Positions 29,241-63,948 of a stretch of DNA of 64,000 bases are shown piece after piece. Within the stretch, counting starts at the first letter, position 1. The number at the start of each line of letters is the position of its first letter. Source of the DNA: a virus (lineage: Duplodnaviria > Caudoviricetes); IMG/VR virus record IMGVR_UViG_3300021400_000128, positions 32,001-96,000 of that record, one strand, 5' to 3'. Below the pieces are notes generated by a model. That model had not been told where the DNA came from. It saw only the letters and a program-made list of their open reading frames with translations, and did not search any database. The position numbers and the translations under genes were made by a program.

Positions 29241-30092
29241 TTAATCCCAATTGAAATTCTTTATTTCCATAACACCTGATGGCTCTGTTATTAATTCATC
29301 TGCAATTTTGAGCATTTCATTTTCAAGCTGCTCATATTTAGGAGATCCCATTTTATATTTTCTTTGCTCCTCATATACTTTGTGCATAACTGTTTCTTTT
29401 ATTGTAAATGAATTTTTTGTGTGAAATTGTACTTCAAAGAGTTTTCCATTTTTATTTTGAAGCGTGACATTAATCCCTTTATATGCCCAAGGCTTTGTCC
29501 AAAAGTTTTTAACTTGTATAAGGTTATATCCGGATTCTTGATATGCCTTTAAAGCTTTATTTACATCTTTACCAAATGATTCACTGTTTACTTCATTGGT
29601 ATAGCGAACAAGATCGTTCATTTGAGATGTGTCATTTTTCCCGGCAAGTCGATTTCTTTTTTGTGTAGCAGATGCTCTTGACTTACGTCTGTTTTTTTCT
29701 CCAAGCAGCGGAGCATGGATCATATCTGAAATTCTTTTAACATCTGCCGTAATTTCAGGTTCATTTTTCATTGCTGAATTGTATTCATTCATAAATGTAA
29801 ACTCATCATTTTTTGAAATGTTATTCATTATTTTATTTCCATCATCATCATAATTATTATTTAATATGTGCTGTATTCGATGTCGATCAATATAATGTTT
29901 TGTTTTGGAATTAATTACCCTTTGTCGTGCTTTTTCCTGTGCCGTTTTCTGTGCTTTTAGTTTTCGCTTGTAATCAGTTACCCTGATATATTTCCTTTTC
30001 ATAGCCGGTTTGCCATCATCTCGTAGTATTGGGTTACCGTCTTTATCTTTTCGGATAACCAGTATCGATTTGTAATCTCTGCTTCCACCCAT
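29241..30092 (-). CDS. MGG-leader protein with a RelA/SpoT-type small alarmone synthetase domain (Apk2/toxSAS-like)
   Basis: RRKS..S...K, DLVRYT, KNFW...YKGIN, FEVQFHT SAS motifs; leader shared with 31515..32612. Confidence 0.85.
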   Translation of the reverse strand: MGGSRDYKSILVIRKDKDGNPILRDDGKPAMKRKYIRVTDYKRKLKAQKTAQEKARQRVINSKTKHYIDRHRIQHILNNNYDDDGNKIMNNISKNDEFTFMNEYNSAMKNEPEITADVKRISDMIHAPLLGEKNRRKSRASATQKRNRLAGKNDTSQMNDLVRYTNEVNSESFGKDVNKALKAYQESGYNLIQVKNFWTKPWAYKGINVTLQNKNGKLFEVQFHTKNSFTIKETVMHKVYEEQRKYKMGSPKYEQLENEMLKIADELITEPSGVMEIKNFNWD

Positions 30093-30104
30093 ATATCACC
30101 TCGT

Positions 30105-30165
30105 TTAAATTAAAAGAAGGCTGAACACACAATCAGCCTTCTTAGGGTCTCTATGGGTAATTATA
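30105..30165 (-). promoter_or_regulatory. Late-leader element 5
   Basis: TATAAT-N9-AGACCCTAAGAAGGCTGA-ttgtgtgt-TCAGCCTTCTT-TT. Confidence 0.85.
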
Positions 30166-30167
30166 AA

Positions 30168-30464
30168 TTATTTTTCGTTATATATCCCGCCCCAAGTTAG
30201 ACCGGGAATATTTGTTGTATTCAATTCTTCTTGTTTATTTACTATCTTCTGTGCCATTTCTTCTGTAATGACATTTATATCGCTGGGCGAATAGTTACCA
30301 TATCCATGCATTGCATCATGAATTGCGCTTCGAAAGTCACGATAATAAGGTCCAGGTTTATCTGCAAGCCATCCTTTTCCGGGAATGTAATATTCATAAG
30401 GATAATCATCATCACTGTCTCGCAGATGAATTACTAAATAACCAAAAAGATAATATTTTTCCAT
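30168..30464 (-). CDS. Putative immunity protein for the SAS toxin
   Basis: 98 aa between the HD hydrolase and the SAS; YY...GW..D...ITEEMA pattern. Role inferred from context. Confidence 0.5.
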   Translation of the reverse strand: MEKYYLFGYLVIHLRDSDDDYPYEYYIPGKGWLADKPGPYYRDFRSAIHDAMHGYGNYSPSDINVITEEMAQKIVNKQEELNTTNIPGLTWGGIYNEK

Positions 30465-30478
30465 ACAATTTCTCCTTT

Positions 30479-30934
30479 TTACGCTGTTAATTTTTTAAGA
30501 GCAGTATTGTATTTTTCAATCCTCATTTCATTCCATTGTTTTTCCTTATCATTGGCAGGAGGAGTTAATCTTGTTTTATCTAAGTTGTGCTGAAGATCCG
30601 CAATTTTTACTTTTAAAGCCAATGGATTATTTTTGATAGCAGGGATGTAAACTTCCAGATAATCATCCTTTTCATCATGTGTCAGTAGTTTAATTGCGTC
30701 AATGATCTGCGGAGGAAATTGCATAGCAAGTTCTTTCAATGTCATATCCGTATCTTCTGCATCTTCAGCGACATCATGCAACAATGCAACACAAATAGCA
30801 TATTCATCATTTCCCATTTGCTCCGCTAAGTGATAAGGATGAAATATATAAGGCACCCCGGACTTATCTTGAGCTCCATGATGCTTTTCATATGCAATAT
30901 TCATGGCTTTTCTCGTTAGATTTGTATAAATCAT
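30479..30934 (-). CDS. HD-domain small alarmone hydrolase (Mesh1/SAH-like)
   Basis: HHGAQDKSGVPYIFHP...ALLHDVAED...VKIADLQHN. Confidence 0.88.
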   Translation of the reverse strand: MIYTNLTRKAMNIAYEKHHGAQDKSGVPYIFHPYHLAEQMGNDEYAICVALLHDVAEDAEDTDMTLKELAMQFPPQIIDAIKLLTHDEKDDYLEVYIPAIKNNPLALKVKIADLQHNLDKTRLTPPANDKEKQWNEMRIEKYNTALKKLTA

Positions 30935-30966
30935 AAGCTTCCTTGTTGAAGTTTTTATATATTATT

Positions 30967-31155
30967 TTATGCAAAAACCTTCATTTCCGTCAGAATTTGC
31001 AATACATCAGAAATTCCTTCAGCATACCCTGCAGCGAAGGTTTTCTTCTGCTCATCTGTGATAGGTACAATAATTTCGTTGAAAAGATCATTTTCTCGAC
31101 TCAACATTTCGCTGAGAATAGAGGTAAGTTCATTTAAATAATTATTGTTATTCAT
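30967..31155 (-). CDS. Small early hypothetical protein
   Basis: First gene after an early cassette (MNNNNYL). Confidence 0.65.
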   Translation of the reverse strand: MNNNNYLNELTSILSEMLSRENDLFNEIIVPITDEQKKTFAAGYAEGISDVLQILTEMKVFA

Positions 31156-31302: not shown

Positions 31303-31512
31303 CTATTTTTCAATCTCTTCTACATACTTCCAAAAATCCATAAATTGTTTACCTGGAAGTCCAGTTCCCATTGCAGATTGATCAATGAGATATTTGACAT
31401 CTTCCCGATCTTCTTTTGATAGTTTTGAATATTCTTCACGCCATTTCTTTGACAAAGGATTTTTTAATAACCCTGCTGCAACCTGATTTACACTTGCCAT
31501 TTTATACCTCAT
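31303..31512 (-). CDS. Small partner (putative immunity) of 31515..32612
   Basis: Directly downstream of the effector and followed by a terminator at about 31270-31296. Confidence 0.55.
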   Translation of the reverse strand: MRYKMASVNQVAAGLLKNPLSKKWREEYSKLSKEDREDVKYLIDQSAMGTGLPGKQFMDFWKYVEEIEK

Positions 31513-31514: not shown

Positions 31515-32612
31515 CTAAAACAATCTATTTTCTGCAATCACAGCCGCTCTATCAAGCACAACTGTATATCCGTTAGAAACTTCAATTACATTGTAACCAG
31601 CCGCTAATGCAATTAAAGCTTCCTGATTACCAACAGCTTTTTGAAGTGCGGGGGAGAACTTTTGCCTTATGCTCTGCAAATCATCATACTTTACAACTTT
31701 TGCTGTTTGAGGATTCAATACTGCATTCATTGAAAGACGACCATACCCCGTATTGCTTCCATAACTATGTGCGAAATAAGTACCTTCACCATAAACACTT
31801 CCGCCTTTTCTGCCGGCAATATAATTATAATCGCTTGTTCGGAAGGCATCAAAAGTGTTTGGATTATCAGCAGATCTCGTAAGTAATTGGCTCTTTGGAA
31901 TATTGTTATCTTTCATAAATTTATTAAATTCTTTTGTGTCCAATACAGTTGGTTTATCGTTTAATCCTAAATCATAGACAACTTTCTGAACTCGACTTTC
32001 ACCGCCTTTTTGTAATGGTGTAGGTAATCTCGTAATATCGCCTTTTGTTCCCATGGATGTGATTATTGCTGATGCTTTTTCGTCATCTGTCATATTCATA
32101 AATTTATTATATTGAGAATTATTATTGGAATTAGACCTTTGTTGTCTCAAAGTTTTCTTGTATTCAGAAAAACTTTGAGTCAGCATCTTACGAGCAGCAT
32201 CAGATAATGTTCCGTCTTCACTATGTAAAGATCCATCAGTTAAATCAATATATGTTTTCTTTCCATATAAATCATCAGAAGCATTCAATGAAGATGCATT
32301 AATATATAGCCTGTCTTTTCCGTGTTTTGTCCAACGCTTAAATCCGGCACGTTCTAATTGACTGATAAGATTAGTATCCTTGTTTGTTAACAAACCTGTA
32401 ATTTCTTTGTTACGTTGATCTACCAATCTTTGTGCTCCGCGTCCCCTTGCGTTTTGCTGCGCAGTCGCTTGTGCCTTCAATTTCCGTTTATAGTTGGTTA
32501 TTCTGATATATTTTCTTTTCATTGATGGCTTGCCATTATCACGTAATATTGGATTGCCGTTTTCGTCTTTTCTGATTACCATTACTGTTTTATAATCTCG
32601 TCCTCCACCCAT
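31515..32612 (-). CDS. MGG-leader protein with a putative ADP-ribosyltransferase-like C-terminal domain
   Basis: MGGGRDYK leader; LLTRS...GGSVYGEGTYFA...GYNVI...VVLDRAAV resembles PARP/ART-like folds; immediately after portal. Confidence 0.6.
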   Translation of the reverse strand: MGGGRDYKTVMVIRKDENGNPILRDNGKPSMKRKYIRITNYKRKLKAQATAQQNARGRGAQRLVDQRNKEITGLLTNKDTNLISQLERAGFKRWTKHGKDRLYINASSLNASDDLYGKKTYIDLTDGSLHSEDGTLSDAARKMLTQSFSEYKKTLRQQRSNSNNNSQYNKFMNMTDDEKASAIITSMGTKGDITRLPTPLQKGGESRVQKVVYDLGLNDKPTVLDTKEFNKFMKDNNIPKSQLLTRSADNPNTFDAFRTSDYNYIAGRKGGSVYGEGTYFAHSYGSNTGYGRLSMNAVLNPQTAKVVKYDDLQSIRQKFSPALQKAVGNQEALIALAAGYNVIEVSNGYTVVLDRAAVIAENRLF

Positions 32613-32624: not shown

Positions 32625-34331
32625 TTAAAATGGAACATTATTAATATCAATCTCTGAATTTTCGTCCGGTTCTAATTCGTCAGGTGTTTCATCTTCCTGT
32701 TGATTACTTTCCCGATCAAATCCGAACTGAGCATTTTTCATTTGCTCATTCTGTGACATCTGCTTTTCAAACGCTTCGTCTGACATAGCATCATTCTGTT
32801 CTTTGATCTCAGCGATCCGCTCTTTGGATTCCTCTACCGTCTCATACGGGAACAGATATTGCCGTATCTCTTCCTGACCGACCACCCCGGCTTCAAGTCC
32901 TTTCATTAGTTCATCCAGTGTCGGAGTTACGTGCTTCTTTGCTTCTTTTTCGGATTCGCCGTAAAAGTGCATACGGAATTCTGTCTTTGAACGGATACCC
33001 ATTTGTAAATCAGACAGCCACTGTGCGCGCTCTGTATCAGCATCGATGATATAACTGTCATCAGCAATGATGGTAATTTGAGCATCCGGATTCACTTTTT
33101 CATGAAGAATATTTTTGCCGATCCATAGGATTGCCCTGGTTACTTCCTTCAATGCTTTTTCAATGCAAATCATTTCTTTATTTGCATTCTGGATCATTTC
33201 TTGACGTTCACCGATCCACTGTGTAGCCGTTGTACTTGTTATCTGACTTCCTTCCAGAACGTATCGCTTTGCTCCAAGTCCTATACGCATTGAAAACATA
33301 TCAAGCATCTTTTGTACACCGGCTGCATTTTCTGTAACACGAAGCGACGGGTTATATTCCTGATACATTCCGCCATCAAGTATCTTGTCTCCTGCATTAA
33401 TAAACAACTGCTCCCCGGCTTCCTGTGGAGCTTTGATCTTGCCATCTTCATCTGTATTAAACATTGAAGATGACATCAGTACCATTTTTCTGCCGAGTTT
33501 AAAATCTGTGATGAAGTTATCGAATGCGCAGTCAAGACCCTTTAGCACATCTTCTGCACCTGAAATGATAGACACCCCGAAAGGTGAATCGTAATCAAAA
33601 ATGTTGACACCGGATTTTCGGATCAATGAGAACCAGGGAAAGGGGCTTCCGGTATGAACTAACTGTCCGTAGCCTTCCTGTTCGATATTGACACCGTACT
33701 TATCCAGATAAAAAGATTCAATATCATACGTTCCTTTGTCATTCAGCAAATGGATTGATACAAGAGAAACTTCCTCACCGTTCATGATTCTGTCTGAAAC
33801 AAAAGCTGCTTCTCGCATAATGGAATTGTCATAGCTGATAGGAATAATTTGTTCGGCGGATAAGTAATTTATCCCGATACTGGCTCCGTCCACAAGGTTT
33901 TCACTCTTCTCAGTGATTTTCATTTTTCGGACATAAACCTCAAACGCCCCTGTTCCGCTCCATCTGGATGTAGTAACAAGCTCGTTTGCATTACGCCAGA
34001 AGTCATTTTCACCGAACACGCCGCTGATTTCATCTTTACCCATGACAAATTCATTTGAAGCTTCATCATCGATAACGATACGGGTTTTTTCATTCAGGAG
34101 GATGGATGCCCAATCTTCGGCACCTTTCAGGAGCATATTGGTTCTGTGTCGTTTTACTTTTTGATAACTATCATTATCATTCAGATCCATTTTCTTTTCA
34201 TATTCATGGAATCCTCTAACATTACCTTCCAACCAGTTCCGCCATTCCGCAACTTTATCGTACATCACGGATTTTTTAACATCCTTGTTGTACTTTCTGT
34301 TAATATAGTCAATTACGTTCTGATAGTTCAT
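32625..34331 (-). CDS. Portal protein (A118/SPP1-like)
   Basis: WASILLNEK, SPFGVSI, DFKLGRK, YNPSLR, TATQ, DDSYIID, FRMHFYGESEKEA. Confidence 0.92.
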   Translation of the reverse strand: MNYQNVIDYINRKYNKDVKKSVMYDKVAEWRNWLEGNVRGFHEYEKKMDLNDNDSYQKVKRHRTNMLLKGAEDWASILLNEKTRIVIDDEASNEFVMGKDEISGVFGENDFWRNANELVTTSRWSGTGAFEVYVRKMKITEKSENLVDGASIGINYLSAEQIIPISYDNSIMREAAFVSDRIMNGEEVSLVSIHLLNDKGTYDIESFYLDKYGVNIEQEGYGQLVHTGSPFPWFSLIRKSGVNIFDYDSPFGVSIISGAEDVLKGLDCAFDNFITDFKLGRKMVLMSSSMFNTDEDGKIKAPQEAGEQLFINAGDKILDGGMYQEYNPSLRVTENAAGVQKMLDMFSMRIGLGAKRYVLEGSQITSTTATQWIGERQEMIQNANKEMICIEKALKEVTRAILWIGKNILHEKVNPDAQITIIADDSYIIDADTERAQWLSDLQMGIRSKTEFRMHFYGESEKEAKKHVTPTLDELMKGLEAGVVGQEEIRQYLFPYETVEESKERIAEIKEQNDAMSDEAFEKQMSQNEQMKNAQFGFDRESNQQEDETPDELEPDENSEIDINNVPF

Positions 34332-34344: not shown

Positions 34345-35055
34345 TCAGGGTTGAATATCTCCCGCTGAAATCCATTTTGTACTCCCATCTTTCCATTGCA
34401 TGAGAAAATTATAGGAAACAACTTTCATCATATTTCCGTCAAGATCAGGTATTTCATATACGTTTCCATTGACTTTTAATACTGTTCCTTCCTCTCCTTT
34501 CGGATAGTAGACAGGATTCATTGTGTCATACCAACCGGCTTTAACATCATTCTTTAGCTTCACTTGTTTGCCTGCAAACTTCTTTTGTAATTCTTTCAAT
34601 TTTTCATTTACGGTAATCATTTTTGATGCTTTTAGAAATGAGGCGTTTCGGATTTTCGTTACCTTTTCAGGTGAATTTTTTGCTATTTCGAGAAGTATTT
34701 TTCGAATTCTCGATAATTGTTGCTGATTTTCACCCGTTCCAAAGTCTCCGTTTTTTAATTTTTTATCTAACCCGATAACGGCATTTTTATCTCTTTTATC
34801 AATAGCACGTAAATATTGCAGAACAGCTCTTTGCATTAAAGGTCTCTCATTTACGATCACAGCATCTTTATCATTACTGCCATGAATATTATCGAAATAT
34901 GTCATAACAGAATCAGGATTTATAGGTTGATTAATAATTTCAGAAATCAGTCTGTTGGCTTCTTTTTCATTGTCTTTATACGATCCGACACGTACATATT
35001 TACCATTCACTCGCTTATAAAGTGCCGCACCTGCATTATCACGTCCGCCGCCCAT
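34345..35055 (-). CDS. MGG-leader protein of unknown function
   Basis: Start refined to MGGGRDNAG (GGTG RBS); directly upstream of portal. Confidence 0.65.
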   Translation of the reverse strand: MGGGRDNAGAALYKRVNGKYVRVGSYKDNEKEANRLISEIINQPINPDSVMTYFDNIHGSNDKDAVIVNERPLMQRAVLQYLRAIDKRDKNAVIGLDKKLKNGDFGTGENQQQLSRIRKILLEIAKNSPEKVTKIRNASFLKASKMITVNEKLKELQKKFAGKQVKLKNDVKAGWYDTMNPVYYPKGEEGTVLKVNGNVYEIPDLDGNMMKVVSYNFLMQWKDGSTKWISAGDIQP

Positions 35056-35533: not shown

Positions 35534-35544
35534 ATGTCACCGCC

Positions 35545-35604
35545 TTAAATAAAAAAAGGCACCTGTATGTACAAAGTGCCTTCTTAGGGTCTGTTTTTAT
35601 TATA
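35545..35604 (-). promoter_or_regulatory. Late-leader element 6, upstream of the portal operon
   Basis: TATAAT-N6-AGACCCTAAGAAGGCACTTTGTAC-atacag-GTGCCTT, then a T-tract. Confidence 0.85.
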
Positions 35605-35648: not shown

Positions 35649-36308
35649 TTATGATTTTTTCGTCCATTGGCCGAGAATATATCGTTGATAGTCAGCTCCG
35701 ATATACATTGATTTGTATGATTCTTTTATGGTGTCTGGAATGTATTGATTGTCATCTATTGAAAAGTTGAGATATAGTGCATTCTTTTCAGAAGATTTTG
35801 TGATCCATTCTCTGAAAAACCAATTCGATTTATCAAGTGGGGTTGTGTTGAACCAGTATCGAGAATTCTTTATTGAGCTGCACCCAATAATATTTTCAAC
35901 AAATGATTTTGGTGTCAAGGGTGCTTGATCGAAAAAGGCCCCTGCAAAATTGAAATATTGTGCTTTTTTCACTGAATCATCATCGTGTGAATTGAACAGG
36001 TAGAATTGATTTGCAGTTTTATGTTTCTTGATTAGAACGTATCTCTGTTCTCTGTTGAAATCCATATTGTATTGAGTTTTTAATTCAGCATTCGATATGA
36101 TTTGTGACACAATATTTTTACTGCACGTTTGATAACTTAATCCACATAATGCAAAATCGTTATTATCAAAATTTTTCATTGCCCATTTGATAAATGTTTC
36201 GAGGATGATGGTGCTTTTTCCCGAATGAACCGCTCCGTCACATATCAGGGTTTTGAATTTTGTGTTCGGAAAATCAAGGATCTTTTTCTGTTTTTCACTT
36301 AGCTGCAT
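35649..36308 (-). CDS. Terminase large-subunit ATPase-domain paralogue, nuclease-less, with degenerate catalytic motifs
   Basis: Colinear with the TerL N-terminal half: GAVHSGKS vs GAIRSGKT, FFDQAP vs MFDEVA; ends at QRYILGQW. Confidence 0.8.
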   Translation of the reverse strand: MQLSEKQKKILDFPNTKFKTLICDGAVHSGKSTIILETFIKWAMKNFDNNDFALCGLSYQTCSKNIVSQIISNAELKTQYNMDFNREQRYVLIKKHKTANQFYLFNSHDDDSVKKAQYFNFAGAFFDQAPLTPKSFVENIIGCSSIKNSRYWFNTTPLDKSNWFFREWITKSSEKNALYLNFSIDDNQYIPDTIKESYKSMYIGADYQRYILGQWTKKS

Positions 36309-36345
36309 TGTTTTCTCCATTATTGTATTTCGCGCCAGGAGTGAA

Positions 36346-37584
36346 CTACTCGGCCATAAATGACCGAGCTTCTTGCTTCATCGCTGCGTCTTGCTGTTGA
36401 AAACGTATTTTCGAACAGTAGAGGGCGCGGGCTCCACAAGCGTTATTGGTTTGGCCAGTTCCTGACCTACCATTATTCAAAAGGAATTGTCTAATTCCTT
36501 CGTTTCTAATATTGACAGCAGCATTGATATCACGGTCATGATGTGTTCGGCAGTTATTACAAACCCATTGACGGATACGTAGATCTTTCACTTCTGGATG
36601 TAATGAGCCGCAAACTGAACAGGTTTGTGAGGATGGGTACCATTTATTGATCCGTATAAGGACTTTTCCCCTGTCTTGTAACTTATAATCTAAAAAGTTC
36701 AGAAACATTCCATAACCATTATCAAGTGTCACTTTTCCGTTACCAAAGCCTTTATTAGACATTGCTTTCATATTCAGATCTTCAACACAGACCATGTCAT
36801 ACTGATTGGCTATCTCAGCAGATTTCTTGTGAAGAAAATCGCTTCTTTGGTTTGCTATATGTCTATGTACTTTTGCAATTTTTAATTTTGTTTTTTTATA
36901 ATTATTGCTTCCTTTCGTTTTATGCCGTAATTTCCTTTGTGCGTGAGTTAGCCGCTTTTGCCCTTTTCGGAAGTATTTCGGTGATCCACAAGTATTTCCA
37001 TTGGAATCAGTATATAAACCATCCGATTTATAATCGAGACCAATTGCATTCAATTCTGGCTCGGTAACAGACCTTTTATCAGAATCATACTCAAACAAAA
37101 CTGAACAGAAATATTTTCCATCATTTGTCATAGAGACGGTTGCAGATTTTAGTTTCCATCCGTCATCAGGATATCTATGAAGAATAGCTTTTACCTTTCC
37201 GATTTTTGGTAATCGTATCTTTTTATTTTCAAAATCAAGGGATACTGTTCCATTTTGATTATTAGTTGTATATGAATCCCGAGATTTCTTTTTTGATTTG
37301 AATTTTGGGCGTCCGGTTCCTTTTGCAGTGAAAAATCGTTTGTACGCATCCTGTAAATTAAGCTGAACATTTGCCAATGCTAATGAATCCACTTCACGAA
37401 GATATGGGTATTCATCTTTATACATAGCAGGGGTTGGTTTTACAATGGATTTATCCTTTTTATAAGCATTTTCCCGTGTTGCAAGCATCAAATTCCAGAT
37501 TTTCCGACAACATCCAAAGGTCTTTGCAAATAAGACTTTCTGTTCATCGTTTGGATATATTTGATATTTGATAGCTCTGTTCAT
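36346..37584 (-). CDS. tnpB: TnpB RNA-guided endonuclease
   Basis: HTH N-terminus, IGLD, VEDL, SSQTCSVCG Zn ribbon, HDRDINAAVNI. Confidence 0.95.
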   Translation of the reverse strand: MNRAIKYQIYPNDEQKVLFAKTFGCCRKIWNLMLATRENAYKKDKSIVKPTPAMYKDEYPYLREVDSLALANVQLNLQDAYKRFFTAKGTGRPKFKSKKKSRDSYTTNNQNGTVSLDFENKKIRLPKIGKVKAILHRYPDDGWKLKSATVSMTNDGKYFCSVLFEYDSDKRSVTEPELNAIGLDYKSDGLYTDSNGNTCGSPKYFRKGQKRLTHAQRKLRHKTKGSNNYKKTKLKIAKVHRHIANQRSDFLHKKSAEIANQYDMVCVEDLNMKAMSNKGFGNGKVTLDNGYGMFLNFLDYKLQDRGKVLIRINKWYPSSQTCSVCGSLHPEVKDLRIRQWVCNNCRTHHDRDINAAVNIRNEGIRQFLLNNGRSGTGQTNNACGARALYCSKIRFQQQDAAMKQEARSFMAE

Positions 37585-39489: not shown

Positions 39490-39506
39490 TATATACGCAA
39501 GCTCCT

Positions 39507-39567
39507 TTAACAAAAAAAAAGAAGGCACACGATCAAATGTGCCTTCTTAGGGTCTGTTTTTATTATA
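39507..39567 (-). promoter_or_regulatory. Late-leader element 7, upstream of terL
   Basis: TATAAT-N6-AGACCCTAAGAAGGCACA-tttgatcg-TGTGCCTTCTT, then a T-tract. Confidence 0.85.
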
Positions 39568-39574
39568 TCTGATT

Positions 39575-39775: not shown

Positions 39776-39788
39776 AATAATCTCCTCA

Positions 39789-40622: not shown

Positions 40623-40686
40623 AAGGGTATCCTCCTCTCTGATTTAGATACCCTTTCTTAGAGCGCATATCTTTTCTAATATTTTA
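40623..40686 (-). promoter_or_regulatory. Late-leader element 8, RBS-occluding variant
   Basis: TAAAAT...GCGCTCTAAGAAAGGGTATC...GGAG-GATACCCTT-ATG; the hairpin ends at the start codon and has no U-tract. Confidence 0.7.
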
Positions 40687-56184: not shown

Positions 56185-56749
56185 TGTACCGGAATCCGCA
56201 GTAAGGGCATTGCCGTTCAAATTGTTCGTCTGCATAGTCATCTAAGTCAATCTCCTCATTGTCGTTTATTTTACTGATTGGTTCTGTTGGTCTTGTATGG
56301 ATCGGTATTTCTTCATTGCTATCATATTCTGAATCATCGGAATATGTCTGATCGATTGGCAATGGTTCCGGGTCCTGAGTGATAATACCGAACCCAAAAC
56401 TGTTCATATCAAAACCAACGTTTTGAAGCTCTTTCATTTCGATACTGAGCTTTTCAAAGTCCCAACCGGATTGTTCCTTCACCTTGTTATCCGCTAATCT
56501 GTATGCTTTGATCTGCTCATCGGTAAGGTCATCTGCCATCACACATGGCACTGTAGTCAGTCCGAGTTTCTTTGCGGCAAGAAGACGGGTATGTCCTGCG
56601 ACAATAACATAATCCTTATCTATTACGATAGGCTGCTTAAAACCAAATTCCTTGATTGACGCAGCAACATATTTCACCGCCGGAAGGTTGTTCCGTGGAT
56701 TGTTTTCATACATTTTCAGTTTCTCAACCGGTATCTCTATTATTTCCAT
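56177..56749 (-). CDS. ParB/Srx N-terminal domain protein with a C-terminal Zn knuckle
   Basis: YENNPRNN...SIKEFGF...AGHTR...YRLADNK; CPYCG. Confidence 0.88.
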   Translation of the reverse strand: MEIIEIPVEKLKMYENNPRNNLPAVKYVAASIKEFGFKQPIVIDKDYVIVAGHTRLLAAKKLGLTTVPCVMADDLTDEQIKAYRLADNKVKEQSGWDFEKLSIEMKELQNVGFDMNSFGFGIITQDPEPLPIDQTYSDDSEYDSNEEIPIHTRPTEPISKINDNEEIDLDDYADEQFERQCPYCGFRYND

Positions 56750-57411
56750 CAGCTTTTTCTCTTTCCATAAATCCATGCAATAGGAATAAGCGTATAAGTG
56801 TCTTTTAGTGCTCTGATACAGTTAACCATCGTCATTCCACTTGTACAAACATCATCAATAAAGATACAAACTGGTTTATTAGAGTGTCCGATTACCTGTA
56901 TCACACCTCTGTCCTGTGTTACATCCGCGTATGTTGATCCTGATAAGTGTCTGTCTGCAAACATCTTGACGTATGGACAATTTAATTTCTCAGCAAGAAC
57001 TTTCCCGACTTCGGAAATGAAATGTTTTTTTGTTTTGCTATGTCCTTGCGGAGCATTATAGACAAAGCAGTTATCGGTTTTATGAATCAATTGCCGGATC
57101 GTGAGTTCGAACTCACTGGCAACCATATTCAGAGCTTCAGGTTCCTGTTCCGCTTTTACTCTCTTGAGCCATTTGACCTGTTCTTTTTCGCTGGTGTCCC
57201 AAGAGCGAATAGACAACCAACGATAATCACCTTTTCTGTTAAATTTCGGAGCTAATGTTCCGATATTAACAGGCATGATTTTCAATTCATGGTCAACAGT
57301 ATCAAATGCGCTGTATGTACTGATTTTTTTCTTTGTACTTTCCGGAGATAACAAGCCATTATCAAATGAAAACACATCGAAGCTGAACCCAGCTCCTAAA
57401 TCATTTCGCAT
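56749..57411 (-). CDS. Phosphoribosyltransferase-fold (ComF-like) protein
   Basis: IFIDDVCTSGMT PRPP-binding loop. Confidence 0.75.
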   Translation of the reverse strand: MRNDLGAGFSFDVFSFDNGLLSPESTKKKISTYSAFDTVDHELKIMPVNIGTLAPKFNRKGDYRWLSIRSWDTSEKEQVKWLKRVKAEQEPEALNMVASEFELTIRQLIHKTDNCFVYNAPQGHSKTKKHFISEVGKVLAEKLNCPYVKMFADRHLSGSTYADVTQDRGVIQVIGHSNKPVCIFIDDVCTSGMTMVNCIRALKDTYTLIPIAWIYGKRKS

Positions 57412-57935
57412 TCGATCCCCATGTTCGTTAACCGTTCGTAGGTTTCCCGCTGTTCATTTAGGCTCTTGCATTCAATCTGTACAATGAAGCGAGGATTACC
57501 TGATCCGGATGTTTCATTATCATCCTCATCCTCTTCTTCATCGTCAGTATCATAATTCGGGAAAAACCCGAAGTCGGCGATGTCGAATTCCAACGGATCG
57601 AGAAGCATGAATTCTTGTTCCAGACGGTCATAATCCCAGGTGGACATTTCCGCTACTTTGTTATCTGCAAGACGAAAAGCGCGGATCTGGTCTTCTGAAA
57701 GGTCATCTGCCATGATGCAAGGGACTTTTGCCATCTTTAACCGTCTGGCTGCCTTGTATCTGGTGTGCCCGCAGATGATCATGTTGTTCTTATCAATAAT
57801 AATGGGTACTTTAAAACCGAAATTCTGAATTGAATTTGCCACGTACTGGACTGCATCGGAGTTCTTTCGTGGGTTGTTTTCATACATTTGAAGGTCGTTG
57901 ATGTCTTTATATACTATCTGTAACTCATCTGCCAT
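57396..57935 (-). CDS. ParB/Srx N-terminal domain protein
   Basis: YENNPRKN...SIQNFGF...CGHTR...FRLADNK. Confidence 0.88.
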   Translation of the reverse strand: MADELQIVYKDINDLQMYENNPRKNSDAVQYVANSIQNFGFKVPIIIDKNNMIICGHTRYKAARRLKMAKVPCIMADDLSEDQIRAFRLADNKVAEMSTWDYDRLEQEFMLLDPLEFDIADFGFFPNYDTDDEEEDEDDNETSGSGNPRFIVQIECKSLNEQRETYERLTNMGIECEMI

Positions 57936-57950
57936 ATTCTCTCCTTACGT

Positions 57951-58006
57951 TTAAATAAAAAGTAGACACTTGTATGTACAAAGTGCCTTCTTAGGGTCTG
58001 ATTATA
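57951..58006 (-). promoter_or_regulatory. Late-leader element 12
   Basis: AGACCCTAAGAAGGCACTTTGTAC-atac-AAGTGTCTAC-TTTTT; loop nearly identical to element 6. Confidence 0.8.
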
Positions 58007-58180
58007 TTTTACCTTATTTTATTATTCACATCGTTGTCATTTCATCCCATATATAGTGATATGGTATCCATCGTGTGGAAGTGTCGAATTCCGTCACAGG
58101 CTGAATCACGGGTATCCGGTACTCACCTGTTCCAACGAACATCGCTTTTTCAAGATTTAATAATGGGAGCTGACTTTTCT

Positions 58181-58894
58181 TCATTTCTTCTTACCGAGCT
58201 TTTCCCGCTGTTTTCTTATCCGCTCATCATGTTTTTCCATATCTTCAACGTTGTATGTCTTTCCACCAAACAATTGATATCCTCGTTCTAACGGTATCAC
58301 TTCATCCTTCAGCTCTTCTGGCACAATACCGTTAAACAATATCTGTGATGGGTTCAGTCGTTTCTTCATTTCTTCATAACCCATCCAGAAATTATCATAA
58401 TAATCCTTCGTCTGCATTGTCCCAACGGTTGACACACAGACCACCGAGTTTGTAGGTTCACCGTCGAAGCAGAATTGAAACGTCTGTGGCAATGCCCATG
58501 TGATCGTTGGGATAATGTTCACCCCGTTCATTTGAAGATAGGCAGCTACCCAGTGTTTTCGGTAGTGATTCCACACCTGCATCGCCTTCGGCATATTGGT
58601 ATATATCGAAAACTCAGGGGAACAGACATAGCGGTACTGTTTCAGACGATCAAGATACAGGTCAGGTGCACTCCAAAGACGTTCGAATTGATAATCATGA
58701 ACGTGAAAATGGATACCACGCTTAGATGGATCGTTCTTTTTGATATCACTTTGCATATAGTTGAATGGGATCCACTTTGTTGTTGTGTCGTATTCCTTCA
58801 CTCTGCCTGCTATCACAGGAATTCCATATTCACCGACACCATCAAACAGAGCTTTTTCCATATTTAGCAGTGGGACAATAAACTTTTTTGCCAT
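58181..58894 (-). CDS. DUF4417 family protein
   Basis: GEYGIPVI...IHFHVHDYQFERLW...SPEFSIY.NMP...QVWNHYR..W...IPTITW...FCFDGEP. Confidence 0.85.
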   Translation of the reverse strand: MAKKFIVPLLNMEKALFDGVGEYGIPVIAGRVKEYDTTTKWIPFNYMQSDIKKNDPSKRGIHFHVHDYQFERLWSAPDLYLDRLKQYRYVCSPEFSIYTNMPKAMQVWNHYRKHWVAAYLQMNGVNIIPTITWALPQTFQFCFDGEPTNSVVCVSTVGTMQTKDYYDNFWMGYEEMKKRLNPSQILFNGIVPEELKDEVIPLERGYQLFGGKTYNVEDMEKHDERIRKQREKLGKKK

Positions 58895-58897
58895 GTG

Positions 58898-59464
58898 TCA
58901 CCCCACGGAAGATTCATAATCGTTCCTGACAGATGCGTCCCCCATCTCACATCTTGCCATTTTGTGAAATTCGTCTAATCCTTTGTCGCGGATACACTCC
59001 AGGAACTTGATAATCAGTGTATCAGTCTCCGGATGAAAATGTCTGCCTTTTCGCATTTTCTTATAGTGGATCATTGGTGATTCAGGTGTCCAGGCTTCTT
59101 TTTGATAGACCTTCCCGGCACCGATCCAGTCACAGATCATCTCTATGACATAGTGATATGGGATTTTGTTTGCAATCACACTTCCGTCTGCTTCAGTAAA
59201 ATCTGTCCAAAATTCCCAATGATGAGGATTCGCTCCTTTGTGATGGAGCCATGCATAGCTGTAGCCGATGTCTTCCTTCTCTGCTTCAATCGGGCTTCGG
59301 TTCCCTTGAAAGTATTTCGCCGAGGGTATGAACTCTGCAAAACTAAATTTTGAAAGATCATGTTTGATTCCCTGCCATGTGATACCACACGCTCTGCATT
59401 CCTTGAATACAACTTTTTTATGTCTGCAAACGGTTAGAAAATGTTTGATATAGGGATTGTTCAT
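58898..59464 (-). CDS. DUF5662 (HD-like) protein
   Basis: HK..V...HDLSKFS..EF...AWLHHKG.NPHHWE...EMICDWIGAG. Confidence 0.85.
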   Translation of the reverse strand: MNNPYIKHFLTVCRHKKVVFKECRACGITWQGIKHDLSKFSFAEFIPSAKYFQGNRSPIEAEKEDIGYSYAWLHHKGANPHHWEFWTDFTEADGSVIANKIPYHYVIEMICDWIGAGKVYQKEAWTPESPMIHYKKMRKGRHFHPETDTLIIKFLECIRDKGLDEFHKMARCEMGDASVRNDYESSVG

Positions 59465-59480
59465 ATTACTCCTAATGTGT

Positions 59481-59538
59481 AAATAAGAAGGCACCTGTTA
59501 ATTAAGGTGCCTTCTTAGGGTCTGTGTTTATTATAACA
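59481..59538 (-). promoter_or_regulatory. Late-leader element 13
   Basis: TGTTATAAT-N6-AGACCCTAAGAAGGCACCT-taattaac-AGGTGCCTTCTTA-TTT. Confidence 0.85.
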
Positions 59539-59543: not shown

Positions 59544-61838
59544 TTATTTAGCAAACTCCCGAATCTGGTTCAGCCCTATGTATTTCTTTCCACCACTAAC
59601 CAAAACTGGAACGCTCTGGATATCGTATTTTTTGGCAAACTCAGTTGTAGCTTCATCCTTCACGACAATCTTTTGATAATCGATCCCAGCTTGCTTCAGT
59701 ACATTCTCAGCCATGTTGCAATTTGGGCATGTCTCTGTTGAGAAAAGCATATTAACATCCTTCTTTTCCTTGTGAAAGTTAGGATCATATTCTTTTCGCT
59801 CTTTGAATTCCTGCACCTTCCCATCATTCCAATTGCGCAGCGGACGATAATATCCCGTGATTCTGCTGTACACTTCGGTTTCTTTTCCACATTGTGGACA
59901 TTGAGCAACTTCACCTGTCAAATATCCATGGTCAGGACAAATTGAATACGTCGGGGATAGTGTGTAATACGGGAGATGATAATTTTCCGCTATTTTCCTT
60001 ACAAGCTGCGCCGCTGCTTTCCACCCGCTCAATCTCTCGCCGAGAAATACATGGAATACGGTTCCGGACGTGTAAAGCGTTTGCAGTTTATCCTGAATAT
60101 CCAGTGCTTCGAACACATCTTCAGTATAACCGACAGGAAGGTGAGATGAGTTTGTATAATAAGGTGTTCCGTCTGACGCTGTTATTATTTCCGGCCATCG
60201 TTCTTTATCATGCTTCGCAAGGCGATATGATGTTGATTCTGCTGGTGTCGCTTCAAGATTGAATAAATTTCCGTATTTTTCCTGATAATCTGAAAGACGT
60301 TCCCGCATATGATTTAGAACATTTTCTGCAAACTTCTGCGTTTCAGGATTTGTCAGATCTTTTTTCAACCACTTCGCATTCAGTCCCGCTTCATTCATAC
60401 CAACCAAACCAATTGTAGAAAAATGATTGTTAAACGTTCCGAGATAGCGTTTTGCGTAAGGATAGAACCCTGCATCAAGATATTTTGTGAGGACTTTTCT
60501 CTTAATATCTAAAGAACGGGCAGCAATATCCATCATTTTATCTAATCGCTTATAAAAGTCAGTTTCATCTTTCGCAAGAAAAGCGATGCGGGGAAGGTTG
60601 ATGGTAACAACGCCGATCGATCCAGTACTTTCTCCGGAGCCAAAGAATCCACCTGATTTTTTACGCAGTTCACGAAGATCAAGGCGCAACCGACAACACA
60701 TCGACCTCACGTCTGTTGGTTCCATATCGCTGTTGATGTAATTAGAAAAATAAGGTGTTCCGTACTTGGCGGCCATTTCAAAAAGCAGACGATTGTTTTC
60801 AGACTCCGACCAATCAAAATCTTTCGTGATAGAGTACGTCGGAATTGGGTACTGTAATCCACGACCATTTGCATCACCTTCAATCATCACTTCGATGAAT
60901 GCTTTGTTTACCATATCAGCTTCTTTTTGGCAGTCGCCATATGTGAAATCCATCGGTTCCCCTCCGACCAAAGCAGGCTGGTCTTTCAGGTCAGTAGGAA
61001 TTCTCCAGTCCAGCGTGATGTTAGTAAATGGAGCCTGTGAACCCCATCGGCTTGGCGTGTTTACCCCGAAGACAAAAGACTGAATGCAGTTTTTTACATC
61101 TTCATATTTCAGGTGATCCGCTTTTACAAAAGGAGCTAAATATGTATCAAAAGAGGAAAATGCCTGTGCACCAGCCCATTCGTTTTGCATTATTCCAATA
61201 AAATTCACCATCTGATTACATAGAGAGGATAGATGCCTCGCCGGAGCAGATGTGATTTTACCAGGAACACCGCCAAGTCCTTCCTGGATCAACTGTTTCA
61301 GCGACCATCCGGCACAGTATGGAGCTAACATGGCAAGGTCGTGAATGTGAATATCAGCATTTCGGTGTGCATCACCGATTTCCTGATCGTAAATTTCACT
61401 CAGCCAGTAATTTGCCGTAATAGCTCCACTGTTGGAAAGAATCAGTCCGCCAATAGAATAAGTTATGGTCGAATTTTCTTTAACTCTCCAATCAGAACTA
61501 TCAACATAACTGTTGACCAATTCTTTGTAGTCAAGGAAAGTGCTTTTTAGATTTCGGATATTTTCTCGCTGTTTGCGATAAAGGATATAGGATTTCGCAA
61601 CATCTGAATATCCGGCTTGACTAAGAATTGTTTCCACACTATCCTGAATATCTTCAACGTTAATCGTATTATTCTTCACCTTTGATTGGAAATCTGCCGT
61701 AACCTGTATTGCAAGCATTTCTAAAACATCTGGAAATACAGTTTTTTCTTCCGCAAGAAAGGCTTTTTCCATAGCGTGAATAACTTTTTGAATATCGAAC
61801 TTAGCATGACTGCCATTTCTCTTTATCACATCACACAT
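59544..61838 (-). CDS. nrdD: Anaerobic ribonucleoside-triphosphate reductase with ATP cone and C-terminal glutaredoxin-like domain
   Basis: VIKRNG ATP cone, HIHDL..PYCAG, SMCCRL, ATPAES, YSRITGYY, C-terminal CPNC. Confidence 0.95.
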   Translation of the reverse strand: MCDVIKRNGSHAKFDIQKVIHAMEKAFLAEEKTVFPDVLEMLAIQVTADFQSKVKNNTINVEDIQDSVETILSQAGYSDVAKSYILYRKQRENIRNLKSTFLDYKELVNSYVDSSDWRVKENSTITYSIGGLILSNSGAITANYWLSEIYDQEIGDAHRNADIHIHDLAMLAPYCAGWSLKQLIQEGLGGVPGKITSAPARHLSSLCNQMVNFIGIMQNEWAGAQAFSSFDTYLAPFVKADHLKYEDVKNCIQSFVFGVNTPSRWGSQAPFTNITLDWRIPTDLKDQPALVGGEPMDFTYGDCQKEADMVNKAFIEVMIEGDANGRGLQYPIPTYSITKDFDWSESENNRLLFEMAAKYGTPYFSNYINSDMEPTDVRSMCCRLRLDLRELRKKSGGFFGSGESTGSIGVVTINLPRIAFLAKDETDFYKRLDKMMDIAARSLDIKRKVLTKYLDAGFYPYAKRYLGTFNNHFSTIGLVGMNEAGLNAKWLKKDLTNPETQKFAENVLNHMRERLSDYQEKYGNLFNLEATPAESTSYRLAKHDKERWPEIITASDGTPYYTNSSHLPVGYTEDVFEALDIQDKLQTLYTSGTVFHVFLGERLSGWKAAAQLVRKIAENYHLPYYTLSPTYSICPDHGYLTGEVAQCPQCGKETEVYSRITGYYRPLRNWNDGKVQEFKERKEYDPNFHKEKKDVNMLFSTETCPNCNMAENVLKQAGIDYQKIVVKDEATTEFAKKYDIQSVPVLVSGGKKYIGLNQIREFAK

Positions 61839-61854
61839 TTCTCTCTCCTCTTAT

Positions 61855-62529
61855 TTAACGCACCATTGTTTTTACATATTTATTTCCAATGGAACGATAT
61901 TCTTTCATTTCCTCTGATGTCGGTGAATGCAGACCGCGTTGAAACACCTCCGTTGTATCCATGAAAGGCTGTAAATACCAGATAGTGGATCCTTGTAAAT
62001 ACCTTCCGGTTTCTTCGATATCCCTTTGGGAATGAAATTCTCTGACAACGGTCGTGCGAAATTCATAAGGAACACCACTACTACGGATAATTTCTATCGA
62101 TTGCTGAATAAGATCGGTTTTCAGATTTTGGATTCCGGATGTTTTAGCGTATTTTTCAAAAGAGTTTTTTACATCCATTGCAATGTAATCAATGATATTT
62201 TGTGTTAGTATCTTTTGTAAAGTTTCAGGATTGCTTCCGTTCGTATCAAGTTTGATGGAATATCCAATCTGCTTGATTTCCTGCAAAAAAGGAATAATAT
62301 CTTGATGTATTAAAGGTTCTCCACCTGTTACACATACACCATCTATTATTCCTTTGCGCTTTTGCAGATATTGAAAAACAGTTTCCGGATCAATTGATTC
62401 ATCACCATTCACAATCCCACTGTTATAACAAAATGGGCAGTGAAAATTACAACCTGTCGTAAATATTACGCAGGCTGTTTTATCCGGATAATTTAGCAAA
62501 CTGAGCTTTTGGAATCCGCCAATCTTCAT
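61855..62529 (-). CDS. nrdG: Anaerobic RNR activating radical-SAM enzyme
   Basis: CNFHCPFC, TGGEP, LDTNG, EFRTT; adjacent to nrdD. Confidence 0.92.
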   Translation of the reverse strand: MKIGGFQKLSLLNYPDKTACVIFTTGCNFHCPFCYNSGIVNGDESIDPETVFQYLQKRKGIIDGVCVTGGEPLIHQDIIPFLQEIKQIGYSIKLDTNGSNPETLQKILTQNIIDYIAMDVKNSFEKYAKTSGIQNLKTDLIQQSIEIIRSSGVPYEFRTTVVREFHSQRDIEETGRYLQGSTIWYLQPFMDTTEVFQRGLHSPTSEEMKEYRSIGNKYVKTMVR

Positions 62530-62545
62530 TCTTTCGTCCTATAGC

Positions 62546-62608
62546 AAAAATAAAAGAAAGCACAATTCAATTACGAAATGTGCCTTCTTAGGGTCTGAGG
62601 TAATTATA
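62546..62608 (-). promoter_or_regulatory. Late-leader element 14
   Basis: TATAAT-N6-AGACCCTAAGAAGGCACA...TGTGCTTTCTT-TTATTTTT. Confidence 0.85.
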
Positions 62609-62715
62609 ACTGATTTTCTTTATGTGTTTTTTTTATTTTAATTGGCGATATCCTTGATGGAATATACTTATCATCTGTTTACTGAATTATCGCCGGATAT
62701 ATGAGCTTCGACATA

Positions 62716-63039
62716 TTACCTTTCCTGGTACTTCGGACATTTCTCATTATCGAAATATACCCCAGTGGGTTTTGTTTCATACTTTTCACATGATCCGGCA
62801 GTGTAGTCTGTTGTCTTACGACCGCTGAACATCTTTCCTGCAAATTTACACGTTCTGCAAGCCATGTTCTTTTGCTTTTCACGCTGACGCTCTGCTGATG
62901 CCGCCATAGCTTCATCTTCTGAATAATAACGGAGCCATACGCTTTTCCTGCTGTCTGAAAGACTGTTAAATTCCTTCTTTTCTTCATCTGAAAGGTCATT
63001 CCAGATTTCATCCAAATATTTTTTCTCACTATCTGTCAT
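62716..63039 (-). CDS. Cys-containing partner (putative immunity) of the ART
   Basis: CRTCKF...CEKY..KP..V...EKC..Y; directly downstream of the ART. Confidence 0.6.
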   Translation of the reverse strand: MTDSEKKYLDEIWNDLSDEEKKEFNSLSDSRKSVWLRYYSEDEAMAASAERQREKQKNMACRTCKFAGKMFSGRKTTDYTAGSCEKYETKPTGVYFDNEKCPKYQER

Positions 63040-63051
63040 TTTTCACCTTCT

Positions 63052-63948
63052 TTAAATTTTACTCCAATCAATTTCAGGGCGTTCAATAGTTTTTGCATCT
63101 TGTCCAACTATAGTAAACACGACTTGTGGAGTTCCATATCTACCACCAGTTCTGTTGATCGCAATCGGTTTCAGTTTATAACCTCTCTGTAAGATGATTT
63201 CAAATTCAGTTCCATAATCAGATTGTTTTGAAACACCATCCCATCCTAAACCGCTTCCCATCCCATGAATACTAAAAGGTTCTGCGTAAATACCTTTTGA
63301 TCCTTTCGGTACAAAAATCTTCATTTCCACGCCACTAAATCCACTTTCAGAAGTCGCACCTGTTGACATAAAGTTATTAACATCTATGATTTTACCTTGA
63401 TCGATGGCTTCCTGAACACCATCCAACATTGCTGGTATAGGCTGAGCAAGCATTAAACCAAACATTCTGTTCATATGTCGTGTTGATACTCCGCGCCGCA
63501 CCCAGATATCTTCTGGAATCTCGGTTTTATCCAAAGCAGCTGTCAGCTGATTCACACGTTCCATTGTTCCATCGTAAAGGTATTCTGTAGGATCCAGTCT
63601 TCCACCTAATAATTTATTCATTGAATCATAAGCACCACCGGTAAATTCATAAGCAGCATCTCTTTCATCATCTGTAAAGCTATTCCATGCTTTACCGGAG
63701 CTTTCCCGGAATTTATCATCAACTTCTTGTTTGTCTTTAGTCCATATCGCATTATCTAATCGTTTTTGATCGTATGATTCACGGTATGGGCTTTGATTTT
63801 CTGAATTCTGCTGTCTTCTTTTTTCTCGTTCCGCTTCTTTTGCTGCTTGTCTCTTGCGTTCAAGATCATCAATTTCAGTCTGCGGAGCTCCATTCAGCCT
63901 TGCATTGGCTATTTTCTTTGCTAATCGATAACTTGCTGATCCACCCAT
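63052..63948 (-). CDS. MGG-leader ADP-ribosyltransferase (VIP2/C3-like R-S-ExE)
   Basis: FTGGAY..MN..L, VRRG, FMST, VPKGSKGIY, EFEIILQRG. Confidence 0.85.
   Translation of the reverse strand: MGGSASYRLAKKIANARLNGAPQTEIDDLERKRQAAKEAEREKRRQQNSENQSPYRESYDQKRLDNAIWTKDKQEVDDKFRESSGKAWNSFTDDERDAAYEFTGGAYDSMNKLLGGRLDPTEYLYDGTMERVNQLTAALDKTEIPEDIWVRRGVSTRHMNRMFGLMLAQPIPAMLDGVQEAIDQGKIIDVNNFMSTGATSESGFSGVEMKIFVPKGSKGIYAEPFSIHGMGSGLGWDGVSKQSDYGTEFEIILQRGYKLKPIAINRTGGRYGTPQVVFTIVGQDAKTIERPEIDWSKI

Follow-up and report, generated by a model that had tools for sequence, protein, structure and literature searches.

Nine unrelated proteins of a 137-kb phage from the ruminant gut, among them several enzymes of toxin type, open with the same few residues, and these N-termini are probably address tags whose most likely role is to load the procapsid with proteins for injection into the next host. 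The phage is represented by the IMG/VR record IMGVR_UViG_3300021400_000128, a contig of 136,915 bp that is, according to IMG/VR, a complete virus and bears direct terminal repeats. Bases 32001-96000 of this contig, a stretch of 64,000 nucleotides, constitute the window analysed here. Positions are window coordinates unless otherwise indicated, and genes whose products begin with Met-Gly-Gly (MGG genes) are named after their start.

The MGG genes and their leaders

A preliminary description of the window reported eight minus-strand open reading frames (ORFs), starting at 30092, 32612, 35055, 35533, 40622, 44164, 46195 and 63948, which all begin M-G-G-[S/G]-[A/R]. ORFs and translations agree with this, as they do with the continuation x-[Y/F]-[R/K] described for seven of the eight, the exception being g35055 (MGGGRDNA). 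The longest ORF opens five codons before the MGG start in g35055 and three codons before it in g44164, and in both genes the Shine-Dalgarno spacing is correct for the MGG start only. A ninth MGG gene (MGGGRDNSGA.., 252 aa) was found just beyond the window end. On the coding strand, 214 ORFs reach 60 aa or more; from the residue frequencies of this genome, 0.5-0.9 of them would be expected to open with MGG by chance, and the probability of nine or more is about 3e-7 to 3e-9. Ser4 is encoded by AGT, AGC, TCA or TCG among the MGG genes and the third bases of Gly2 and Gly3 vary as well, which indicates that the constraint acts on the protein and not on the bases. The two longer leaders were recovered as first described, with a mean column identity of 81% over 55 aa for leader A (three genes) and 84% over 65 aa for leader B (two genes).

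The leaders are modular and swappable between unrelated C-terminal domains. A profile of leader A was searched against 1.84 billion representative proteins and the matches were clustered at 50% identity. Of the resulting 35 clusters, 33 matched from residue 1; the exceptions were a match from residue 14, attributable to a mis-called ORF start, and a repetitive 2581-aa protein that was disregarded as noise. Word-indexed searches added 21 leader-A proteins (g40622 as query) and four leader-B proteins. Pooled with the MGG genes of four related loci, the search matches yielded 84 unique MGG proteins, whose C-terminal parts fell into 34 similarity groups, six of them present behind more than one leader class. 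The profile search for diverse C-terminal domains, which had been proposed as a check, thus ended in 34 groups and not in one fixed domain. The alarmone synthetase domain, for instance, follows leader B in this genome and leader A in protein P0044; the C-domain of g35055, which has a class C leader in this phage, is joined to leader A in P0029, and leaders A and B both precede the P0003 domain. In relatives of the phage, seven to eight MGG genes are packed around terminase and portal, within 15-20 kb, and the set of cargo differs from one relative to another.

Across 44 leader-A sequences, M1, G2, G3, S4, A5, R8, I13, G20 and I26 are invariant; the extreme N-terminus is thus constant among sequences of 36-80% overall identity. 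The residue pattern of leader A corresponds to a helix-turn-helix, and leader B was modelled as two strands and a long helix. A pattern search of IMG/VR for leader A gave 48 pattern matches, none of which was confirmed by tblastn, and a leader B locus in the same database (L001) was rejected as a chance match internal to an unrelated 155-aa protein.

Matched tags within smaller phages

Homologues of the g32612 C-domain led beyond the 137-kb lineage. A survey starting from them, in IMG/VR and in metagenome-assembled genomes (MAGs) of Christensenellales, Oscillospiraceae, Lachnospiraceae, Acutalibacteraceae and Anaerovoracaceae, recovered 47 loci (37 non-redundant) in Clostridia phages and prophages of 30-60 kb. 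The common order of the cassette is DUF4417 (often fused to ParB_N), ADPrib_exo_Tox, a tiny basic ORF, an ADP-ribosyltransferase (ART)-like enzyme, a tiny ORF, TerS, TerL and portal. The two ART-type enzymes are not homologous, and within one phage they open with the same peptide. Over the 37 loci, identity at residues 2-10 was 79% within phages versus 30% between phages, a value reached by none of 10,000 permutations (p<=1e-4). Variants found in different phages include MGGRGS.S, MAKSSRGG(K/R)R, MPKSSRGG, MAKGNTGG, MGRG.SKAGG, MASNK.R.SGVT, MKVRSNGVVNYVRK and MAK.RSGLSKT. In paired tags, the codons differ at up to 6 of 12 identical residues, and the sequences upstream of paired genes differ; this points to selection on the peptide and leaves recent gene conversion as no explanation. 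Matching within phages is the signature expected of one common reader per phage, and is taken here as co-evolution with such a reader.

In many loci (L010, L013-L021 and others), a very basic ORF of only 34-62 aa comes after each tagged enzyme, and ORFs of the first kind show a (D/G)RW motif and a Lys-rich tail. Their products might act in immunity, as chaperones or as head proteins that bind DNA. In one 60.7-kb genome (L037, IMGVR_UViG_3300021387_000252), three consecutive genes are GGRGS-tagged, one of them with a GTG start; expansion of tagged cargo is therefore not confined to the 137-kb lineage.

Late expression and position in the head module

A nucleotide motif, CTAAGAA(G/A), marks a regulatory leader present in 16 copies genome-wide (14575-63985), all on the sense strand and intergenic. 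Besides MGG genes, it precedes TerS, TerL, the scaffold gene, two tail operons, the tape measure gene and a few other genes, and it is probably a late-gene switch. Two designs were recognised: ACCCTAAGAAGGC followed by a hairpin and a U-tract, which resembles a terminator, and GCGC(C/T)CTAAGAA(A/G)GGG, which pairs across the GGAGG ribosome-binding site (RBS). Seven of the nine MGG genes lie behind this late leader, six with the strict motif and g44164 with a one-base variant. The six genes of the window that had been placed behind the same regulatory leader as the virion genes are among them, and so is the ninth gene.

The head module resembles that of SPP1. Its portal gene has g35533 and g35055 immediately upstream and g32612 immediately downstream, an arrangement that is the same in three relatives (L002, L003 and L006); g32612 occupies the slot of gp7/MuF in SPP1-like modules. 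MuF (PF04233) is absent at E<=1 from the complete genome, and none was detected in the eight MGG proteins of the window at E<=0.1. Together, late co-regulation, head-module position, the lack of MuF and the likeness of g30092 and its HD hydrolase neighbour to a published MuF toxin pair provide a circumstantial but consistent link to the virion. Co-folding of the portal (6-row alignment) with residues 2-50 of leader A (44-row alignment) returned a score of 0.00, which is evidence neither way.

The tag might also be read by a handler that is encoded beside it and has no part in the virion, and that modifies, activates, chaperones or localises the enzymes in the infected cell without any packaging. 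DUF4417 is the best candidate: in 18 of 18 loci surveyed, the gene directly before the first tagged one encodes a homologue, and the window holds a DUF4417 gene that is likewise late. The function of this domain is not known, and its fusions to the ParB-CTPase fold, as seen in the small phages, are enriched in phages (bioRxiv 10.1101/2025.10.10.680097). Expression together with terminase, portal and scaffold, however, fits assembly or the next infection better than takeover of the current cell, and the DUF4417 gene of the present phage is some 4 kb away from the closest MGG gene. A handler of this kind without packaging is unlikely in our view; moreover, DUF4417 is compatible with procapsid loading, for which it could be the loader. 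In the window, it belongs to a block driven by the late leader (54554-59494) that also comprises DUF5662 (58898-59494, 1e-38), two ParB_N genes (57396-57935 and 54554-55165), a weak PRTase-like protein (56749-57411) and a C5 cytosine DNA methylase (55144-56241).

Prp-type leaders and the mature N-terminus

Methionine aminopeptidase removes the initiator Met before Gly, and the core of the tag is, by inference, a free Gly-Gly-basic N-terminus. In some of the surveyed loci the tag stands behind a (D/N)LQ(L/I)F sequence. One pair (L031) combines a partner beginning M-GGRGSSS with another reading ..INLQLF-GGRGSSS, and two further loci have FNLQLF-GG (L026) and FDLQIF-GG (L009). On sequence comparison, all three leaders fit the (D/N)LQ(F/L)F' motif followed by a small residue, as published for the leader of ribosomal protein L27 in Firmicutes, MLxx(D/N)LQ(F/L)F'A(S/H)KK, which is cut by the protease Prp after Phe (PMC9405229). 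Prp also cleaves capsid and scaffold proteins of phage 80alpha, its substrates being located in large assemblies (PMC5744158). Cleavage of the present leaders by Prp would expose the same Gly-Gly end as Met removal does in the MGG versions. In those phages whose cargo has a Prp-type leader, scaffold and capsid proteins were checked for one and had none, so that it is found on cargo only.

These leaders raise the possibility that the tag is read by host machinery, as a degron or as a processing or localisation signal (e.g. in Prp/ribosome assembly or secretion), and varies with the host. The hosts are indeed Clostridia with a Prp-type extension on L27, which was seen in four of the five MAGs examined, and the action of Prp on substrates in large assemblies would suit such a role. 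Mimicry of L27 by the mature tag was, however, not borne out: when 15 leaders were aligned locally to five host L27 sequences and compared with shuffles, z exceeded 2.8 for two and the other 13 remained at the null level. Several tag classes occur, besides, in phages of similar hosts, Met removal alone suffices for most tags, and no features of a secretion signal were seen. A host reader is accordingly quite unlikely. Two other candidates were dropped: eukaryote-type N-myristoylation (MGxxxS) fits leader A and not classes B, C or D, and a double-glycine secretion leader would have its Gly-Gly at the cleavage site, not at residues 2-3.

Shared N-termini could, finally, be devoid of function, as relics of recombination at the 5' junction of cassettes or as a by-product of constraints on translation initiation. 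Polymorphic loci often recombine at conserved junctions, and the MGG codons (ATGGGNGG) are purine-rich and Shine-Dalgarno-like. Yet codon choice varies at identical residues, in the pairs as well as across the nine genes, paired genes differ upstream, the extreme N-terminus of leader A outlasts extensive divergence of the remainder, and the Prp-type variants preserve the mature end despite an altered start. Absence of function is very improbable in the light of these observations.

Cargo domains and candidate partner genes

Among the 34 C-terminal groups, few are recognisable: ART (PF03496), zeta toxin/AAA_33 and zincin peptidases with HEXXH, to which the small alarmone synthetase can be added. 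Coordinates of the MGG genes of the phage and of associated features are compiled in Table 1.

Table 1. MGG genes, candidate partners, late leaders and landmark genes of the phage
Feature	Position in window	Strand	Evidence or remark
Tape measure, 2711 aa	6367-14502		PHROG/Pfam scans
Major capsid protein	25880-27193		PHROG/Pfam scans
Acidic coiled-coil protein, scaffold-like	27440-28294		By sequence and position
g30092, leader B and RelA/SpoT-type small alarmone synthetase domain	29241-30092	-	
Late leader (hairpin, U-tract)	30093-30153	-	Upstream of g30092
98-aa ORF, candidate binding-type immunity	30168-30464	-	Between HD hydrolase and g30092; conserved in L002, L003
HD-domain phosphohydrolase, small alarmone hydrolase type	30479-30934	-	PF13328 HD_4 1.5e-6; phrog_990 2.9e-36; upstream of g30092
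69-aa ORF, candidate g32612 partner	31303-31512	-	2 bp downstream; position conserved in L002, L003
g32612, leader B, middle domain and ART-like C-domain	31515-32612	-	Directly after portal
SPP1-type portal	32625-34331	-	phrog_533 2.5e-71; PF05133 on orthologues; MGG genes on either side
g35055, short beta-type leader, class C (MGGGRD..YKRVNGKYVR), 236-aa protein	34345-35055	-	
g35533, MGGSAEYR.., 158 aa	35057-35533	-	Between terminase and portal in every relative
Late leader (hairpin, U-tract)	35534-35595	-	Upstream of g35533, g35055, portal, g32612
Large terminase	38209-39528		PHROG/Pfam scans
66-aa ORF, candidate immunity-like partner of g40622	39575-39775	-	
g40622, leader A and HEFGH zincin peptidase	39789-40622	-	ATLF 8e-4
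Late leader, RBS-sequestering variant	40623-40669	-	Upstream of g40622
72-aa ORF, candidate immunity-like partner of g44164	43041-43259	-	
g44164, leader A and HEFGH zincin peptidase	43262-44164	-	ATLF 3.7e-3; C-terminal cluster 1
Variant late leader (CCTAAGAAGAC, hairpin, U-tract)	44165-44229	-	Upstream of g44164
g46195, MGGSAKFRF.., short tag and 299-aa protein	45296-46195	-	phrog_8314 (unknown function) 4.6e-9; no Pfam match
Late leader (ACCCTAAGAAGGC, hairpin, U-tract)	46196-46260	-	Upstream of g46195
DUF4417 gene, late leader	58181-58894	-	PF14386 3e-50 / 1.3e-51; candidate tag reader or handler by co-occurrence
107-aa Cys-rich ORF, candidate g63948 partner	62716-63039	-	13 bp downstream; no Pfam match; position-based
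g63948, leader A (residues 1-~48) and exoenzyme/VIP2/Alt-type ART	63052-63948	-	
Late leader, RBS-sequestering variant (GCGCTCTAAGAAAGGG..GGAGG..)	63949-63993	-	Upstream of g63948
Ninth MGG gene (MGGGRDNSGA.., 252 aa)	64473-65231 (genome 96473-97231)		Just beyond window end

Leader A had been assigned to two HEXXH peptidases and a VIP2-type ART, and all three assignments held. The match of g63948 to ADPrib_exo_Tox (PF03496, 1.6e-21) reaches 77 bits for a cut-off of 23.4, the PHROG Bxa and Alt-like ART families match as well, and a catalytic pattern of the R / S-T-S / E-x-E type (VRRG, STG, EFE) can be read in the translation. Both g40622 and g44164 contain HEFGH, with weak matches of the anthrax-LF type (8e-4 and 4e-3). 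Their small neighbours share 40% identity (E 4e-10).

For leader B, the fusion to a RelA/SpoT domain was upheld: g30092 matches the small alarmone synthetase SaSAS (PDB 8vx3; phmmer 8.8e-12 over residues 106-263), with a weak match to Tas1, while the Pfam RelA_SpoT model gave no report at E<=0.1. The C-domain also matches the C-terminal part of phrog_7625, annotated as 'head morphogenesis' (1.8e-19). The second assignment, an ART-like domain in g32612, is to be read as a functional lead only, drawn from language-model features and weak fold matches. ESM features place the C-domain at 0.92 to ART-PolyVal clusters (172 shared). In the AlphaFold 2 (AF2) model (predicted local distance difference test, pLDDT, 77), weak matches are dominated by ART domains, the highest score (Z 5.7) belonging to one chain of the A4 pre-ejectosome of a cyanophage and the ART domains of cholix, ExoA and PARP following at Z 3.5-4.5; Foldseek against the PDB gave E>=0.16 throughout. 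No Pfam hidden Markov model (HMM) matched g32612, and PF18760 (ART-PolyVal) had no match at E<=10 in a six-frame search of the genome.

The four remaining proteins (g35533, g35055, g46195 and the ninth gene product) had no assignable fold or family in the scans. For g35533, the AF2 model (pLDDT 82) consists of a helical bundle and a three-stranded sheet, with no meaningful fold match in the PDB (best Z 7.4, a helical protein) or BFVD (E>=0.02); it is better seen as a core component than as polymorphic cargo.

Small partner genes had been described beside most MGG genes. They are clear for the two peptidases and plausible for g32612, g63948 and g30092; none was seen for g35533 or g35055. By analogy with Aph1, which lies beside MuF-Apk2, the HD hydrolase is a candidate enzymatic immunity protein for g30092, and the 98-aa ORF between them had no family match in the scans. 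After the ninth MGG gene comes a 154-aa protein (L008:135-599, genome 96034-96498) whose two CxxC pairs and weak match to HTH_19 suggest a layout of zinc ribbon and helix-turn-helix that resembles MqsA and may denote an antitoxin-type partner. Immediately upstream of the ninth gene lies a 398-aa TnpB-like ORF (L008:1419-2615).

Proposed function and arguments against it

The tag is proposed to consist of two parts. The first would be the invariant extreme N-terminus, Gly-Gly-[S/G]-[A/R]-x-[Y/F]-[R/K], as left after removal of the initiator Met. The second would be a spacer, built as a basic helix-turn-helix in leader A, as a basic beta-hairpin and helix in leaders B and C, and as a Gly/Ser/Pro/Gln-rich linker in the distant phages. 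One phage-specific reader, possibly the portal, the scaffold, the capsid interior or DUF4417, would recognise the tag on otherwise unrelated proteins that are made late, alongside the virion proteins. Through loading of the procapsid, the ART, the ART-like enzyme, the two zincin peptidases, the alarmone synthetase and several unknowns would travel in the head and would be ejected together with the DNA, to enter the next host as presumably active enzymes. In the producing cell they would be restrained by the products of the small neighbour genes and by the HD hydrolase.

A number of observations weigh against procapsid loading. Tag class is confounded with phage lineage, and variation between phages could therefore reflect the specificity of the host and not that of the phage. 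Among the matches of an exhaustive HMM search with leader A, none had the leader behind a portal or MuF domain. No prohead protease was noticed in the few head-module genes that were scanned, without a dedicated search, which leaves the release of cargo from its anchor unexplained. If nine proteins compete for one reader, either each cargo is present in few copies or the receptor is abundant, and GenBank phages offer no cultured relative. The family of g35533 is conserved across every relative and is not polymorphic. The view of the cargo as toxins, taken in the preliminary description, fits ART, zincin peptidase, alarmone synthetase and zeta toxin and does not extend to the majority of cargo domains, which have no recognisable toxin fold. 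The suggestion that the tag replaces MuF likewise stood in part: it suits this genome, which lacks PF04233 and has an MGG gene in the post-portal slot, but of 24 related records with tags, 4 contain PF04233 as well (among the 10 complete records, 3 do), and the tag is therefore not simply a MuF substitute. PF04233 was found with MAKSSRGG, MGRG and Prp-GGRGG tags and was absent from all complete MGGRGS and MASNK phages.

A wider hypothesis is put forward tentatively, as a possibility about which we remain rather doubtful. Clostridia phages might have a cargo address that is general and programmable, namely a free Gly-Gly-basic N-terminus exposed by Met removal or by hijacked host Prp, through which a phage reader (possibly DUF4417 or the SPP1-type portal) brings any carrier into the capsid, to be injected; in the rumen, the 137-kb lineage would then have expanded this system to at least nine cargo proteins with exchangeable warheads.

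Comparison with known systems

N-terminal targeting of virion cargo and polymorphic phage effectors, which would be joined here, are of a kind already known. The closest parallel is the capsid targeting sequence (CTS) of T4, ten residues that are identical on IPII and IPIII, suffice to load foreign proteins and have been proposed as an evolutionary route to pack varied proteins (PMC9026906). In both systems a short N-terminal peptide is common to unrelated proteins of one phage (nine genes here, pairs in the 37 loci), variable cargo includes an ART, the tag is conserved across relatives and expression is late. The two peptides have no sequence similarity, and in T4 the prohead protease gp21 cleaves off the CTS, whereas an invariant free Gly-Gly end, followed by a structured or flexible spacer of 20-50 aa, is apparently required in the present case, an SPP1-like siphovirus of Clostridia.

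Polymorphic toxins fused to MuF have been described in temperate phages (Jamet et al. 2017, PMC5576092; Zhang et al. 2012, PMC3482391), including an alarmone synthetase with HD-hydrolase immunity, Apk2-Tis1-Aph1 (PMC10083569). The MGG proteins resemble them by a conserved N-terminal module joined to swappable toxin-type C-domains (ART, RelA/SpoT, peptidase), by small downstream genes and by location beside the portal in the head module; g30092 with its HD hydrolase neighbour parallels MuF-Apk2/Aph1 in particular. In contrast, the module measures 8-60 residues here as against about 300, PF04233 is lacking, many genes of a genome are tagged (nine here) instead of one, and MuF can be a separate gene in tagged relatives.

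Polyvalent proteins, with ARTs of the Tox-ART-HYD2 clade (Iyer et al. 2017, PMC5512222; Pfam ART-PolyVal PF18760), are likewise predicted to be packaged in the head and injected as early effectors, and the C-domain of g32612 resembles ART-PolyVal by language-model features. The enzymes described here are separate and small, each with its own tag, and not parts of one giant polypeptide. The Prp-processed leaders of 80alpha (PMC5744158) compare with the L27-type (D/N)LQxF leader of some tagged relatives; in 80alpha the leader is carried by structural proteins and its role is unclear, whereas here it is found on cargo and would seem to serve exposure of the Gly-Gly tag.

Unusual features are the presence of nine cargo genes in a single genome, the several spacer classes behind one invariant N-terminus and the probable use of the host L27 protease. 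MGGRGS was not found in the literature searched, and that on MuF toxins, polyvalent proteins and CTS contained no description of these tags. Should the tags be a loading signal, they would explain how many Clostridia phages of gut and rumen deliver enzymes at infection without fusion to a head protein, the deliverable enzymes being ADP-ribosyltransferases, peptidases, alarmone synthetases and zeta-type kinases. They would also provide a functional context for dozens of orphan families that carry a tag, assign a testable role to DUF4417, connect the maturation of phage cargo with the host L27 protease and offer a handle of 8-50 residues to place chosen proteins in phage particles. Matching of tags within a phage is, in addition, a simple signature by which such cargo can be searched in any phage genome.

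Genomic setting

The genome has a GC content of 40%, and its credible genes are all on the minus strand. Close relatives are known from metagenomes; of the relatives that were read, the majority stem from one large metagenome project. Among GenBank phages, megablast of window positions 39000-47000 and tblastn of g40622, g32612, P0064 and the ART-like protein of locus L021 gave no matches. The product of 27440-28294 looks like a scaffold protein and is regarded as the candidate for that function.

Directly downstream of the large terminase gene lies a pair of IS200/IS605-type genes, tnpA (37581-37994) and tnpB (36346-37584). After tnpB, a 223-aa ORF (35649-36320) repeats the ATPase N-domain of the terminase, including a second Walker A motif (the two copies read CDGAVHSGKST and CDGAIRSGKTS), and looks like a partial duplicate of the terminase gene and not like one half of a split gene. 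Between g63948 and the DUF4417 block (59544-62529), two ORFs of 764 aa and 224 aa, the shorter one with a radical-SAM-like CxxxCxxC motif, look, by their sequences, like an anaerobic ribonucleotide reductase and its activase. Between g40622 and TerS, a set of three genes (40689-41276, 41366-41824 and 41821-42108) comprises YunG (1.2e-30), a pentapeptide-repeat-like protein and a small Cas_VVA1548-like protein, the latter two named after Pfam hits on their counterparts in relatives, where the position of all three genes is kept.

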